Counted from the stretch's first letter, positions 54,552 to 58,263 are shown. The stretch: 64,000 bases of DNA from an uncultured Gammaproteobacteria bacterium (GCA_913042085.1 CAJWKH010000001.1:1617-65616); one strand, 5' to 3'. Notes: generated by a model not told the origin, from the letters alone. Numbers and translations: made by a program.

Positions 54552-54629
54552 GGGTCTGTAGCTCAGCTTGGTTAGAGCGCACCCCTGATAAGGGTGAGGT
54601 CGGAAGTTCAAGTCTTCCCAGACCCACCA
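54552..54629 (+). tRNA. tRNA-Ile (anticodon GAT), with encoded CCA
   Basis: Folded by hand: acceptor GGGTCTG/CAGACCC, D arm GCTC/GAGC, anticodon arm CACCC-CTGATAA-GGGTG, T arm GGAAG-TTCAAGT-CTTCC, discriminator A plus CCA. Near-identical to E. coli tRNA-Ile1 in the D, anticodon and variable regions. Confidence 0.95.
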
Positions 54630-54646
54630 GTTTTCAATATAAGTTC

Positions 54647-54668
54647 TTGGTTTATTAACCAATATCAA
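54647..54668. promoter_or_regulatory. perfect palindrome overlapping a weak FNR-like site upstream of usp
   Basis: TTGGTT-TATT-AACCAA (54647-54662) is a perfect 6-4-6 inverted repeat. Overlapping TTAAC-CAAT-ATCAA (54655-54668) matches TTGAT-N4-ATCAA at 8/10. AATAAT at 54693-54698 is a possible -10 element. Confidence 0.3.
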
Positions 54669-54723
54669 TTCCTTTTAATTTCTTAAGTTTAAAATAATTT
54701 TTTTAACCTTTGGGGATTTAGTA

Positions 54724-55161
54724 ATGGCATACAAGAGTATTTTGGTAGCTATAGACTTAAGTAAAGAATCACAACAAATTATCTCTAAAGCTAAAGAGAC
54801 AGCTGATACTTACGGAGCTAAGCTATATTTAATTTCAGCAATTGAACCTCTTCTTCAAGTTCATGGAGATGTTTTATCAACTCATGGAGCTTATGGGGCC
54901 ATAGACAATGACGCTAAGGAAGAGGCGGAAAAAAGATTAATGACTATATGTAAAGATATAGGCATCTCAAGCAAGAATTGTTTTGTAACAATAGGCAATC
55001 CAGCCAACGAGATTAAACAAAGAGCATTTGAGTTAAAGTCTGATTTGATAGTAATAGGGACACACGGAAGAAAAGGAATCAAAAAACTGTTGCTTGGCTC
55101 TACCGCTAATAGTGTATTGAACGGAACGAAGACTGACGTTCAGGTAATAAAGATAAATTAG
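54724..55161 (+). CDS. universal stress protein (UspA family)
   Basis: 145 aa. ILVAIDLS N-terminus and ATP-binding motif GTHGRKGIKKLLLGST. Confidence 0.85.
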   Translation: MAYKSILVAIDLSKESQQIISKAKETADTYGAKLYLISAIEPLLQVHGDVLSTHGAYGAIDNDAKEEAEKRLMTICKDIGISSKNCFVTIGNPANEIKQRAFELKSDLIVIGTHGRKGIKKLLLGSTANSVLNGTKTDVQVIKIN

Positions 55162-55197
55162 CTTCCAGCTTAAAAAACCCCCTTAAATTCTCTTTTG

Positions 55198-55211
55198 TTG
55201 AGATAAATCAA
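55198..55211. promoter_or_regulatory. candidate FNR/Anr/Dnr-type (CRP-FNR family) binding site upstream of the NOR operon
   Basis: TTGAG-ATAA-ATCAA matches the TTGAT-N4-ATCAA consensus at 9/10. CATGAT (55233-55238, 4/6 to TATAAT) lies about 31 bp from the site centre, as in class II FNR promoters. AAGGAG RBS at 55252-55257. Confidence 0.45.
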
Positions 55212-55261
55212 TTCTCATTTAACAAAATTATTCATGATAGCTCTCTAAGTTAAGGAGTCTT

Positions 55262-55561
55262 ATGTCAGAGATAGAATTGCTAGCCTCTTCAGTATCAGGA
55301 GCCTTGATAGTGCTAAGTGGAGCAGGATACGCACTTCTTTTTGCTTCCTCAAAGGTTTTTAATAAGAGATCTTTCCTAAATCTTGCATACTGTTGTTACT
55401 TTATCTTACTGATATCAGCTTATATTCTAGTTTTATCTCTTGATCTCACTGGATTATGGAGTTTCTTAATATTCATCATGCTTATAGGTTATTGGTATGG
55501 GCCAAAATTTATTTGGAACTTAACAGTAAGAACTCATCTTCAAGAGGCTAATCATGAATAA
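55262..55561 (+). CDS. small integral membrane protein (3 predicted TM), first gene of the NOR operon
   Basis: 99 aa with strong RBS. Its stop overlaps the norC start by 8 bp. No family recognised. Confidence 0.55.
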   Translation: MSEIELLASSVSGALIVLSGAGYALLFASSKVFNKRSFLNLAYCCYFILLISAYILVLSLDLTGLWSFLIFIMLIGYWYGPKFIWNLTVRTHLQEANHE

Positions 55562-56159
55562 AGAAGTGAAATGGATGTCTGAATCCTTATGGAAGAAGAT
55601 TGCTATATGGGTAACTTCATTGATGTTATTGATATTGGTAGCTCTAACTTTCGATACTGTTTCTCAGATCACAGAAGGAACATCAAGAGTGCCTGACTAT
55701 TCAGTGATAAATAATAAGATATTTTATGAATATGATAAGAAGAGAGACATCCTAGCACCTGTAATTGGAGAATTATCACCTCTATTTGGGAAAGAATTAG
55801 ATAAATCTGAAGCAAAAGAGTTAGTAAATCTTGGCAAACTCACAATTCAGGCAAAGAACTGTATGAATTGCCACACAATTTTGGGAAATGGAGCCTACTA
55901 TGCGCCTGACTTAACCAAAGCTTGGTTGGACAAAGGTTGGGGTTCTGAATCAGTTAGAGAAACATTAATGTTATCTTTTTTGCTTGATCCTGAAACAAAC
56001 GCAAGATCTTTTGGAACAAATAGAAAAATGCCTAATCTTGGAATGTCTGAAGAAGAGGCGAGAGGCGTAATAGCTTATCTTAAATGGATGTCATCAATTG
56101 ACACAAATGGTTTCCCTGCCCATTTCGAATCAATTGAACAAGACAAGGAAAGCAAATGA
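55554..56159 (+). CDS. norC: nitric oxide reductase cytochrome c subunit (NorC-like)
   Basis: 201 aa. N-terminal TM anchor and heme-c site NCMNCHTILGNGAYYAPDL, plus NRKMPNL (Met ligand context) and YLKWMSSIDTNGFP. These parallel Pseudomonas NorC segments NCVGCHTLLGEGAYFAPEL, RRAMPQF and FLKWSSKIDTNQWP (from memory). Confidence 0.85.
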   Translation: MNKEVKWMSESLWKKIAIWVTSLMLLILVALTFDTVSQITEGTSRVPDYSVINNKIFYEYDKKRDILAPVIGELSPLFGKELDKSEAKELVNLGKLTIQAKNCMNCHTILGNGAYYAPDLTKAWLDKGWGSESVRETLMLSFLLDPETNARSFGTNRKMPNLGMSEEEARGVIAYLKWMSSIDTNGFPAHFESIEQDKESK

Positions 56160-57583: not shown

Positions 57584-57589
57584 AGAATT

Positions 57590-57877
57590 ATGAAAAGAAT
57601 TACATCCATTTTGTTTTCATTTTTAATTTTTTCTTCTTATTTACATACCGAAATTCCAGATCAATGGGTTTTGTGTTCCTCATGCCATGGATCTTCGGGA
57701 GAAGGAGGCTCCGGACCTAAGTTACAGGGTAAAAGTTTTAACGAAATTAAGTCTGATCTTGAGGGTTATAGGAGTGGAAAAATAAAAGGCCCTCAAAGCT
57801 TTTTAATGTTTGCCATGGTTGGCAATCTAGATGAACAAGATATTGAGGCTTTAGCTAAATACGTAGAAACTTTGTAA
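57590..57877 (+). CDS. mono-heme class I cytochrome c (periplasmic)
   Basis: 95 aa with a signal peptide, a single CSSCH heme-binding motif and a downstream Met (FLMFAM). Confidence 0.8.
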   Translation: MKRITSILFSFLIFSSYLHTEIPDQWVLCSSCHGSSGEGGSGPKLQGKSFNEIKSDLEGYRSGKIKGPQSFLMFAMVGNLDEQDIEALAKYVETL

Positions 57878-57933
57878 TCCCTTAAAACACGAGAATTCAC
57901 ACTCCACTGCTGTAAAATTATTTTATTTCTTAC

Positions 57934-57954
57934 GAAAGGAGCATTGCTCCTTTC
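57934..57954 (+). terminator. perfect hairpin downstream of the cytochrome c gene
   Basis: GAAAGGAGC-ATT-GCTCCTTTC forms a 9-bp perfect stem with a 3-nt loop, 57 nt after the stop codon. There is no clean U-tract after the stem, so terminator function is uncertain. Confidence 0.3.
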
Positions 57955-57964
57955 TGGCGATGAT

Positions 57965-57998
57965 GAGGCAGGAAGTTCAAGTCTTCCCAGATCCACCA
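57965..57998 (+). repeat. degenerate direct copy of the tRNA-Ile 3' end (att-like remnant 1)
   Basis: GAGGCAGGAAGTTCAAGTCTTCCCAGATCCACCA versus tRNA GAGGTCGGAAGTTCAAGTCTTCCCAGACCCACCA: 31/34 identical, same orientation. No matching 5' acceptor strand lies upstream, so it is not a functional tRNA. Confidence 0.75.
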
Positions 57999-58055
57999 TC
58001 TTTATAGCTGGACTTCCATTGATTTAAAGGCTTTTCAGCCAAATCCCGTTTCAGC

Positions 58056-58082
58056 GATTAAGAAGGTTTAAGCAGATTAAGA
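58056..58082 (+). repeat. short direct repeat GATTAAGA x2 (19-bp period) in the non-coding spacer between the att-like remnants
   Basis: AGCGATTAAGA at 58053-58063 and AGCAGATTAAGA at 58071-58082. A second pair, CGGGGAA, lies at 58140-58146 and 58151-58157. Confidence 0.3.
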
Positions 58083-58218
58083 CCGTTTTGTGGTGCACAA
58101 AGGGGTGGGCTCTTGTAAAGTTTAAGCTTTAATAAGAAGCGGGGAATAGTCGGGGAAGGATATTCCATTCTCTAGAAAAGGGCATTACTATAGACCTTGT
58201 AAGGCATAGCACTCCTCT

Positions 58219-58263
58219 CTGATAAGGGTGAGGTCGGTAGTTCAAGTCTTCCCGGACCCACCA
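58219..58263 (+). repeat. degenerate direct copy of the tRNA-Ile 3' half (att-like remnant 2)
   Basis: CTGATAAGGGTGAGGTCGGTAGTTCAAGTCTTCCCGGACCCACCA versus tRNA positions 54585-54629: 43/45 identical, spanning anticodon loop to CCA. It lacks the 5' half of the tRNA. Confidence 0.85.

Follow-up and report, generated by a model that had tools for sequence, protein, structure and literature searches.

Several described systems of genomic islands and integrative elements offer a comparison for the locus reported here. The cis-mobilizable elements (CIMEs) of the ICESt1 family of ICEs (integrative and conjugative elements) in Streptococcus thermophilus have lost their integration genes and kept both attL and attR (PMC5704250). 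A second element can enter the attachment copy of such a first one, which produces a CIME-ICE tandem with an internal hybrid site, and the composites move together (PMC5704250). In Prochlorococcus, tRNA genes seed the islands called tycheposons, with tandem integrations flanked by partial tRNAs and with scattered remnants; tycheposons combine an integrase with a replication module and nutrient or redox cargo, and related elements occur in marine Gammaproteobacteria (Hackl et al., bioRxiv 10.1101/2020.12.28.424599). Flexible genomic island 2 (fGI-2) at the tRNA-Lys gene of 'Ca. Methylopumilus' is an additive island with recurring tRNA 3' repeats (PMC10872708), and the ssrA-specific islands of Dehalococcoides carry respiratory reductase operons (PMC3146451). 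Here, we describe a tRNA-Ile island with predicted nitric oxide reductase (nor) genes at positions 54630-58263 of a 64,000-nucleotide stretch of DNA, referred to as the window, from an uncultured gammaproteobacterium (GCA_913042085.1, CAJWKH010000001.1:1617-65616).

A genome-collection scan with PssA places the host of the window in the SAR86 clade. We consider it very probable that positions 54630-58263 are an additive tRNA-Ile island that was built by tyrosine-integrase elements and that now holds two integrase-less remnants in tandem. The target of these integrases would be the part of tRNA-Ile between its anticodon loop and the terminal CCA. Unit 1 (54630-57998) would be a nor cargo cassette closed by an old, decayed attachment copy, and unit 2 (57999-58263) would be closed by a younger one, directly behind which the original flank of the chromosome resumes. 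This reading draws on direct observations, namely the repeats, the empty and alternatively filled sites, the arm homology, the absence of an integrase, a P-O-P' junction and a crossover in usp. The island adds a new example to a well-known class, the tRNA-linked additive island of decayed, integrase-less tandem elements, and nothing mechanistic in it departs from known tRNA-island biology. Its interest lies in the SAR86 host, in the nitric oxide reductase cargo (with nirK beside it in one lineage) and in a newly identified family of tRNA-Ile-specific elements.

The tRNA-Ile(GAT) gene is the sole tRNA gene that ARAGORN and Rfam find in the 64-kb window. It is 100% identical to the tRNA at the empty sites of L011 and L025 (L numbers designate the loci and contigs that were compared), and a promoter-like block 5' of it is kept in all relatives. 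The attachment core, O, is formed by the final 45 nucleotides of the gene (54585-54629), and the tRNA forms the attL side (B-O). When the last 34 nucleotides were used as a query with up to three mismatches, the window gave three matches, all on the plus strand, at 54596-54629 (no mismatch), 57965-57998 (three) and 58230-58263 (two), and 100 dinucleotide shuffles gave none; hence, the two tRNA-Ile repeats are real and not due to chance. By BLAST, the outer copy (scar 2) and tRNA positions 34-78 are identical at 43 of 45 positions. The inner copy (scar 1) extends in register to the anticodon loop, and seven of its eight mismatches lie within its first 19 nucleotides, so that over the same 45 nucleotides, scar 1 is much more decayed than scar 2 (8/45 versus 2/45). 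Both scars lack a 5' half and are not recognized as tRNAs by the gene callers. The two scars have flanks in common that are absent at the tRNA (CTCCTyT directly 5' and TCT 3'), which suggests that they share a non-tRNA parent. In relatives, too, nearly all of the fragment copies begin no earlier than the anticodon loop. The CCA is the end point of almost all of them, and those of L105 and L110 end in CCG. The same arrangement as in the window is present in seven further metagenome contigs (L001-L007), in which the variant of the second fragment was compared base for base.

Much of this had been anticipated in an earlier note on this DNA. Its coordinates for the tRNA and the two copies and its counts of 43/45 and 31/34 were reproduced by ARAGORN, Rfam, BLAST and the mismatch search, and it was right that copies lacking a 5' half are not tRNA genes. 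It had also reported that the scars are unequally decayed, and the gap is in fact larger than it had noted. Its interpretation of the repeats as tyrosine-integrase attachment scars is borne out by the empty sites, by a cognate integrase at the same site and by the arm homology, all of which are described below.

One Tara contig (ERR598953 k127_5340; L008 7518-8447, compared with window 54400-54629) has pssA and tRNA-Ile followed by tRNA-Ala(TGC) and 23S rRNA, with no island, and its tRNA-Ile differs from that of the window by one T-loop base. L008 is either a chimeric assembly, made via the tRNA-Ile copy of the rRNA spacer, or a real rearrangement between two tRNA-Ile copies. On either account, the tRNA-Ile of the window is a second copy outside the rRNA operon.

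Empty sites are present in the close relatives L024, L011 (single-cell genome AG-343-L05), L025 and L069. In these four, the intact tRNA-Ile is directly followed by tctaatatatactcc..., which is the sequence that follows scar 2 in the window, then by a 45-amino-acid open reading frame (ORF) and the 5'-nucleotidase gene (nt5). For example, pssA, tRNA-Ile, the small ORF and nt5 are contiguous in L024, which has 95-96% nucleotide identity to the window in both flanks. The empty site that the earlier note had predicted, with pssA and tRNA-Ile followed by the nucleotidase gene, thus exists in close relatives, with the small ORF in between. Empty sites also occur in more distant lineages (L016, L028-L032, L051, L053, L064, L079 and L086).

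A metagenome scan anchored on the nucleotidase yielded 64 loci, and at least seven different site contents were found among contigs that are at least 92% identical in the nt5 flank. Besides being empty or holding the nor cassette plus the stub (the window type), the site can contain one lipoprotein gene between perfect 47-nucleotide repeats (L010), two such genes between perfect 51-nucleotide repeats (L027), a GIY-YIG-like gene on an insert of 2.1 kb (L082), more than 5 kb of sequence that includes an SPFH protein (L081), several fragments in an array (L083 and L087) or an element with an integrase (L080). Five loci have the lipoprotein cassette. To call the cargo fixed, as had been done before, is too strong for a site that is polymorphic at this level of flank identity and for a cassette whose ends are joined elsewhere.

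One cassette family, found in L039, L040, L041, L048 and L098, ends in a 38-amino-acid C-terminal fragment of a nitroreductase (e.g., L098 6310-6423). The fragment is 68-82% identical to the chromosomal nitroreductase beyond nt5 and lies directly 5' of a 47-nucleotide tRNA-Ile fragment. This observation suggests that the cassette once took up sequence of the host flank or recombined with it.

An integrase occupies this very site in the near relatives L080 and L088. L080, whose nt5 flank has 96% identity to that of the window, encodes a 352-amino-acid tyrosine recombinase (L080:1107-2165; PF00589, E 7e-17; PHROG integrase, E 8e-41) with visible HxxR and Y motifs. About 105 nucleotides 3' of this gene is a perfect 45-nucleotide tRNA-Ile fragment, followed by the same chromosomal flank as in the window. 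A protein search found homologues of the integrase in 16 clusters, which have 47-97% identity and are all metagenomic, and the order integrase, arm, fragment is common to L080 and the three clusters whose contigs were read (P0001, P0003 and P0011). The integrase gene is at the fragment (distal) end and is transcribed outward, toward the end of the element. The arm between them, which we call family A, is about 100 nucleotides long and has two GGGGxA repeats about 10 nucleotides apart, followed by ATTCC, CTATAG and GCACTCCTCT-like motifs; the family-A tRNA-Ile 3' fragment starts at CTGATAA.

A whole element of about 9 kb is present between two fragments in L090, and in L092, an element with an integrase precedes two cassettes that have none and that both end in a fragment (three fragments in total). 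Replication-like ORFs of 578-678 amino acids are encoded in L089-L091, L095 and L096, and a copy in L093 is cut at the contig end; the 678-amino-acid ORF of L090 matches PHROG replication family 4913 (E 9e-12). Beyond this match, Pfam and PHROGs gave no function for the other ORFs of the elements, most of which are orphans, and no capsid or conjugation genes were recognised in the integrase elements. Literature searches found no published description of a tRNA-Ile-specific SAR86 element family, and these small tRNA-Ile-specific integrative elements would be a previously unannotated family.

Two other origins for the elements were considered and rejected. As to a phage, IMG/VR contains neither an exact match to the 45-nucleotide core nor a relative of the integrase, and the INPHARED integrases are at most 30% identical to the latter. 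As to an integron, the repeats are tRNA fragments and not attC sites, and the integrase of the relatives scores 67.6 bits compared with a cutoff of 220 in the XerA/integron-integrase models. Arms of at least two more types are found 5' of tRNA-Ile fragments (seen in L044, L047, L050, L058, L062, L073, L092 9673-9763, and L027 200-240 and 1530-1560). One has repeated ATGAACAC(AC)TAGT motifs, and another has AGTGCTATA twice at each end of an integrase-less 1.5-kb islet. These arm types imply that other integrase families use the same tRNA-Ile core.

The arms of such elements can be recognized in unit 2 of the window. Window positions 58152-58294 and L088 5093-5235, each comprising arm, fragment and flank, are 83% identical over 144 nucleotides (E 3e-38). 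In a ten-sequence arm alignment that takes in the integrase-bearing L088, L089 and L095 and four other loci of the same arm type, the homology of the window starts at about 58124. The arm of the window has GGGGAA at 58141-58146 and again at 58152-58157, ATTCCATT at 58162-58169, ACTATAG at 58187-58193 and GCACTCCTCT adjoining the core, and it is similar to the L110 arm, with a score that 2 of 500 shuffles attain. On its left side, the stub matches L027 120-206, which is directly 3' of the intact tRNA-Ile in L027. Because its right part matches the L088 arm and its left part the L027 arm, the stub can be read as the left and right arms of a gutted element. We predict that unit 2 consists of the joined end-arms of an integrative element, the interior of which, including the integrase, was deleted.

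The endpoint of the deletion is within about 20 nucleotides of the expected integrase stop codon. In L013, the last ~60 nucleotides of the integrase gene are kept and are fused to a decayed fragment through AGGTC microhomology; L013 thus shows an intermediate state. In the window, a tblastn search with 21 integrases (the cognate family and distant relatives) gave a best E value of 0.17 and only noise within the island, and Pfam found no integrase among the island ORFs. An integrase pseudogene was rejected on these results, in agreement with the earlier note, which had seen no integrase in the island. The same note had taken the stub for a separate, gene-less insertion of 265 bp: it is a separate unit, but given its homology to L088 and L027, it is a pair of putative joined arms and not featureless. 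The stub was also considered as an RNA. An Rfam scan of 57850-58320 (E <=1) gave two sub-threshold chance matches, and the fold z-score was 0.07; therefore, it is not a structured RNA.

The cargo of unit 1 is predicted to be a cytochrome-c-dependent nitric oxide reductase (cNOR), composed of a heme-copper NorB and its NorC partner. The best solved relative of NorB is the NorB of Pseudomonas aeruginosa cNOR (3o0r_B, E 1.7e-96, full length), its homologues are called nitric oxide reductase subunit B in the source databases, and norC is adjacent to norB and overlaps it. The 99-amino-acid membrane protein always accompanies norCB, being conserved 5' of norC in L048/L098, L102 and L110. The small cytochrome c falls into only two clusters in a 5.8-billion-protein database. 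The earlier note's list of a 3.4-kb cargo (usp, membrane protein, norC, norB and cytochrome c) holds, with support from Pfam and from 3o0r_B.

Between the cytochrome c gene and scar 1, a 55-nucleotide unit (57947-58001) is 84% identical to the L088 arm plus core (E 4e-12). A decayed arm was sought in the whole spacer (57878-57953); the spacer is indistinguishable from shuffled sequence (score 7 against the intact L110 arm, compared with 5.3 +/- 1.9, and matched by 103 of 500 shuffles), and only the 7-10 nucleotides beside the core match. A promoter and terminator scan of the island gave no matches above chance. Metagenome gene callers place a 68-amino-acid ORF on the minus strand at window 57793-57999, over the end of the cytochrome c gene and scar 1; it is probably spurious.

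The nor cassette is found with its own right-hand fragment in three lineages: the window, L048/L098 and L105/L110. In L048/L098-L101, where nt5 has 79% amino-acid identity, the cassette is at the same locus and deeper in an array, in the order tRNA-Ile, a 4.3-kb cassette, a 47-nucleotide fragment, aldehyde dehydrogenase, usp-nor-cytochrome c, a decayed fragment and nt5. The last fragment, about 110 nucleotides after the cytochrome c gene, is more decayed than scar 1. Nucleotide identity to the L098 lineage is 76% in the cargo and 79-82% in the flanks. In another SAR86 genome (GCA_902511525.1, L102), the genes for the membrane protein, NorC, NorB and cytochrome c are at an unrelated locus, without a tRNA-Ile fragment, and NorB is 85% identical.

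A different arrangement is present in L105 and L110-L118, at least 24 contigs from many samples, whose NorB and NorC are 93% and 96% identical to those of the window. Here, the cytochrome c gene is followed by an intact family-A arm, a 45-nucleotide fragment with three mismatches and then the sequence that follows the tRNA in the window, which leads into a second usp; window 54581-54741 and L105 4125-4285 are 91.3% identical over 161 nucleotides. The ends of the cassette are thus joined as arm-fragment-arm (P-O-P') in all of these contigs, and this head-to-tail junction would be the one expected of an excised circle or of a tandem array.

The Usp protein of the window is 88% identical to that encoded by L110 usp2 and 61% identical to that of usp1. 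In a sliding nucleotide comparison, the window from 54630 to about 55140 resembles usp2 and its upstream arm (85-100%), and from about 55145 it resembles the sequence downstream of usp1 (80-100%). The parentage switches at about 55125-55160, at the 3' end of usp, and the window usp is chimeric relative to the L110 lineage. A mosaic was also looked for at the protein level, where the alignment was uninformative; the breakpoint is seen only in the nucleotide comparison. With the nor cassette in circular form, a single homologous crossover within the conserved 3' end of usp would interconvert the L110 and window arrangements, and it could have run in either direction. Whichever direction it ran, the nor cassette appears to have existed in an att-recombined form.

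In L110 5094-8743 (also in L111, L113 and L114), usp2 is followed in turn by a 3' fragment of tRNA-Val(TAC) on the minus strand (~5566-5615), NirK and a porin; NirK is a copper nitrite reductase (TIGR02376, 461 bits). Therefore, nirK and norCB adjoin in the L110 lineage as separate units that are bounded by tRNA fragments.

Table 1. Features of the tRNA-Ile island and its borders (window positions; arms are putative assignments).
Feature	Position	Strand	Evidence or remark
tRNA-Ile(GAT), intact	54552-54629	+	ARAGORN; Rfam 70.8 bits
Left arm (P') of the nor islet and usp upstream region	54630-54723	+	Same sequence 3' of the tRNA-Ile fragment beyond cytochrome c in L105 and L110
usp (universal stress protein), first islet gene	54724-55161	+	Pfam Usp, E 1e-26
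99-amino-acid membrane protein	55262-55561	+	No Pfam or NCBIfam match
NorC-like membrane-anchored cytochrome c subunit	55554-56159	+	Pfam Cytochrom_C; sub-threshold NorB_cytochrome_c-like match
norB, predicted catalytic subunit of cNOR	56156-57583	+	Pfam COX1, E 1e-62
Small c-type cytochrome, last islet gene	57590-57877	+	Pfam Cytochrom_C, Cytochrome_CBB3
Spacer, cytochrome c to scar 1	57878-57953	+	Position of the integrase-side arm, decayed; last 7 nucleotides (CTCCTTT) family-A-like
Scar 1, decayed direct copy of tRNA-Ile positions 34-78	57954-57998	+	8/45 mismatches; closes the nor islet on its right
Left-arm (P') module of the putative gutted element	58015-58101	+	96.6% identity over 87 nucleotides to L027 120-206
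Integrase-side arm (P, family A)	58124-58218	+	Homologous to arms of integrase-bearing loci; integrase gene absent
Scar 2, direct copy of tRNA-Ile positions 34-78	58219-58263	+	2/45 mismatches; outer attR core
Right flank (B') with conserved 45-amino-acid ORF (ATG 58288)	58264-58425	+	Followed by the 5'-nucleotidase gene (nt5, 58391-59959; Pfam 5_nucleotid_C, Metallophos)

The history of the locus is more difficult to explain than its structure. Two successive insertions at the tRNA attB had been proposed in the earlier note; however, the inner scar is the older one, so distal accretion or the entry of a composite would take their place. Since the inner scar is older than the outer one and the nor cassette occurs with its scar in diverged lineages, the family-A element was probably not the first at the tRNA. 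We infer that a nor islet was already resident and a family-A element integrated at its distal attachment copy, or that both entered as a composite. Either event would be a cis-mobilisation like that of the CIME-ICE tandems (PMC5704250). A later deletion would have removed the interior of the family-A element, and the nor cassette itself may have been moved in trans by such an integrase. In its loop region, scar 1 has CTGGCGA in place of CTGATAA and, for this reason, is probably no longer an integrase substrate; the pair formed by the tRNA and scar 2 might still be a substrate for recombination. A specific crossover point was sought in the scar mismatches, whose counts are too small to indicate one, and neither a crossover in the anticodon loop nor one in the variable loop fits cleanly.

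Several observations weigh against an island built in this way by tyrosine-integrase elements. An inner scar more decayed than the outer one is not what simple serial insertion at the tRNA predicts. No integrase is linked to the nor cassette in any contig found, and the connection of the cassette to family A consists of the arm beside cytochrome c in L105/L110 and the 7-10-nucleotide motif in the window. Atypical composition, a frequent though not obligatory mark of islands, was not found in the GC content, the GC content at third codon positions (GC3) or the tetranucleotides of the cargo. The GC3 is 0.30 versus 0.271 +/- 0.024, the GC content and tetranucleotide profile are like those of the rest of the window, and the tetranucleotide distance of the cargo is below the window mean, with 85% of sliding windows deviating more. 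The composition comparison that the earlier note had proposed has thus been made, and the cargo does not stand out from its flanks. In addition, the cargo is about as diverged from the L098 lineage as the flanks are (76% versus 79-82%), so the cassette may be old and the empty sites may be secondary losses. Finally, all of the comparisons use metagenome or single-cell assemblies. The possible old age of the cassette limits any claim of recent acquisition; the nature of the repeats is unaffected by it.

The unequal decay of the scars would be accommodated if the nor cassette, with its old scar 1, and the family-A element had been joined in a donor and had integrated once, with the interior deleted afterwards. 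We regard such a single arrival as quite possible, if somewhat short of probable. The composite would have excised via the outermost attachment sites, and the proposal is a variant of the tandem-remnant explanation that does not contradict it. It accounts for the 2/45 mismatches of the outermost scar 2 and the 8/45 of scar 1, which would be an old internal junction, and it agrees with the cassette and its fragment being a unit common to three lineages; composite or tandem behaviour is known for CIME-ICE (PMC5704250) and for tycheposons (bioRxiv 10.1101/2020.12.28.424599). However, no contig contains an intact composite of nor cassette and integrase element, the mismatch counts are small, and in-situ integration at the distal attachment copy of the nor islet would give an identical gene order. 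It is less likely, and on balance we think unlikely, that the nor cassette goes back to an ancestor at this locus and was inherited vertically, the relatives having lost it by recombination between direct repeats in a deletion-prone region with no recent gain. The cassette at the same locus in L048/L098, with a divergence near that of the flanks, the host-like composition of the cargo and the old scar 1 would all agree with this. Moreover, site-specific excision and homologous recombination between the repeats both restore a clean site, so the empty sites do not reveal a direction. Yet the cassette is bounded by attachment copies and, hence, entered by site-specific recombination even if it is old. 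Vertical descent would also require several independent losses, because the intermediate lineages L024, L010, L011, L013 and L025 are without it, and it leaves the cassettes at other loci in GCA_902511525.1 and the L110 lineage, as well as the attP-like junction of the cassette ends, to be explained.

Two further explanations deny that there was any integration or any real variability at the site. Stand-alone tRNA duplications occur in bacteria, and the mere presence of repeats could mean that the partial copies are decayed tandem duplicates of the tRNA, or dispersed repeats, instead of scars. This is extremely improbable. The window copies, like nearly all of the copies in relatives, have their start at the anticodon loop or beyond it, and the window copies have no 5' half; there are only three copies in 64 kb; a fragment lies about 100 nucleotides 3' of a tyrosine integrase gene in four of the four family members examined; and the flank of scar 2 is homologous to an integrase arm. 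A dispersed repeat family unrelated to the tRNA, which the earlier note had named as the finding that would overturn its view, is ruled out by more than 100 loci in which each copy is a tRNA-Ile 3' fragment, nearly all of them at this locus or beside an integrase. That the variability of the site among relatives is an assembly artefact of the 45-78-nucleotide repeats is only slightly less improbable. The possibly chimeric k127 contig of L008, with its junction of pssA and tRNA-Ile to tRNA-Ala and 23S rRNA, shows how such an artefact might look. But the window-like lineages with empty sites were assembled independently at least four times; their flanks differ from the window by 4-13%, and they are not collapsed genomes of the window type. 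In the latter, the tRNA and scar 2 have no exact word longer than 19 nucleotides in common. The alternative cargos consist of real genes, which recur in several contigs, and the L110 arrangement was assembled many times over, from many samples.

If the tandem-remnant explanation is kept, the locus can be compared with the systems mentioned at the beginning. Of the usual marks of islands of tRNA-targeting tyrosine integrases, it has the intact tRNA with a direct 3' repeat and an empty site in relatives, and it lacks the integrase and the atypical composition. It resembles the CIMEs in its order (target gene, integrase-less unit, internal scar, decayed element and outer scar) and in that units 1 and 2 both lie between attachment copies and are both without recombination and transfer genes. 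Unit 2 would derive from an integrase-bearing element, given arms homologous to those of L088 and L027, and the arm of the nor cassette is intact in L105/L110, whereas the corresponding segment of the window is at shuffle level. It differs from the CIMEs in its putative helpers, which are ~5-9 kb long and have an integrase and a putative replication protein, with no conjugation genes visible, and in its host, a streamlined marine gammaproteobacterium. Mobilisation of the nor cassette, moreover, is putative here, with indirect support from the P-O-P' junction and the usp crossover.

Integration at a tRNA, partial-tRNA flanks and arrays of tandems or remnants (e.g., L092) are shared with the tycheposons, and so is the grouping of an integrase, a replication module and metabolic cargo in small elements. 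However, the target tRNA-Ile(GAT) is outside the seven Prochlorococcus sites, the integrase of the SAR86 elements is distal and outward-facing, whereas that of tycheposons is described as inward-facing, and the window has remnants only. As in fGI-2, the content next to the tRNA varies within a species, the cassettes are split by tRNA 3' repeats, and the cargo consists of metabolic or resistance genes; the variability expected of an additive flexible island is seen in the seven or more site states among contigs with closely similar nt5 flanks. The repeats here are 45 nucleotides long and start in the anticodon loop, compared with 20 nucleotides in fGI-2, and an integrase family and its arms can be identified. 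With the Dehalococcoides islands, the locus shares the 3' end of a small RNA as target, a respiratory operon as cargo, an integration module that is separate and set by the site and a major role as a source of strain diversity. The target there is tmRNA, and many of those islands keep their integration module, whereas the window has lost its own.

In the surface ocean, SAR86 ranks with the most abundant of the uncultured heterotrophs; to our knowledge, little is known about gene exchange in its streamlined genomes. The locus is a sequence-level example of a tRNA-Ile hotspot whose content varies among near-identical populations and for which the serving integrase family can be identified. The nor cassette acts like a plug-in module that, in one lineage, adjoins a nirK cassette. 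Detoxification of nitric oxide (NO) or partial denitrification would therefore be a flexible trait that depends on the niche, plausibly one with low-oxygen water, and not a property of the lineage. This bears on how nor or nir reads in ocean metagenomes are interpreted.

A broader and more doubtful suggestion, which we make tentatively, is that there is an undescribed family of ~5-9-kb tRNA-Ile(GAT)-specific elements in SAR86 and related marine bacteria that mobilises integrase-less cargo in trans or in cis, with the nor cassette being able to circularise and to relocate through usp by homologous recombination. Its elements may be characterized by the outward distal integrase, the arm with paired GGGGxA and the putative replication protein, and its cassettes may include denitrification modules, usp-norCB and, in the other lineage, usp-nirK. 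If true, this would be a cassette-shuffling system for handling NO and nitrite in abundant ocean heterotrophs.

As for the chromosomal flanks, ilvBNC and pssA are 5' of the tRNA, and the 45-amino-acid ORF and genes for the 5'-nucleotidase, a nitroreductase, a hydrolase and a sulfatase are 3' of the island. The 45-amino-acid ORF is called in L001-L005 and L007 and conserved in L010, L011, L013, L016 and L024. A 65-amino-acid ORF with a GTG start inside scar 2 (58228-58425, plus strand) is more likely this conserved gene, starting from ATG 58288.

The interval between pssA and tRNA-Ile is a second variable segment of the locus. In L011 (10792-17520; also in L012, L017, L019 and L028), a 6.9-kb iron-uptake cluster separates the stop codon of pssA from the promoter of tRNA-Ile. 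Its products are a TonB-dependent receptor, a periplasmic binding protein, a FecCD permease with an ABC ATPase, a siderophore-interacting reductase and a HugZ-like protein; it has no tRNA-fragment borders, and it is absent from the window, where the corresponding point is at about 54495-54510. The identity of L001 to the window is 99.9% over the cargo and 99.6% over the right flank, whereas it drops to 97.4% over the left flank (ilvC-pssA); this would fit a mosaic that arose by recombination, with its boundary at the tRNA or close to it. An 823-bp contig (L021, JASLTU010000116.1) is 99-100% identical to the end of pssA, the tRNA-Ile and the first 94 nucleotides of the island; it is a SAR86 fragment that was mis-binned in an Acidimicrobiales metagenome-assembled genome, ETNP14_MAG_7, from the eastern tropical North Pacific.

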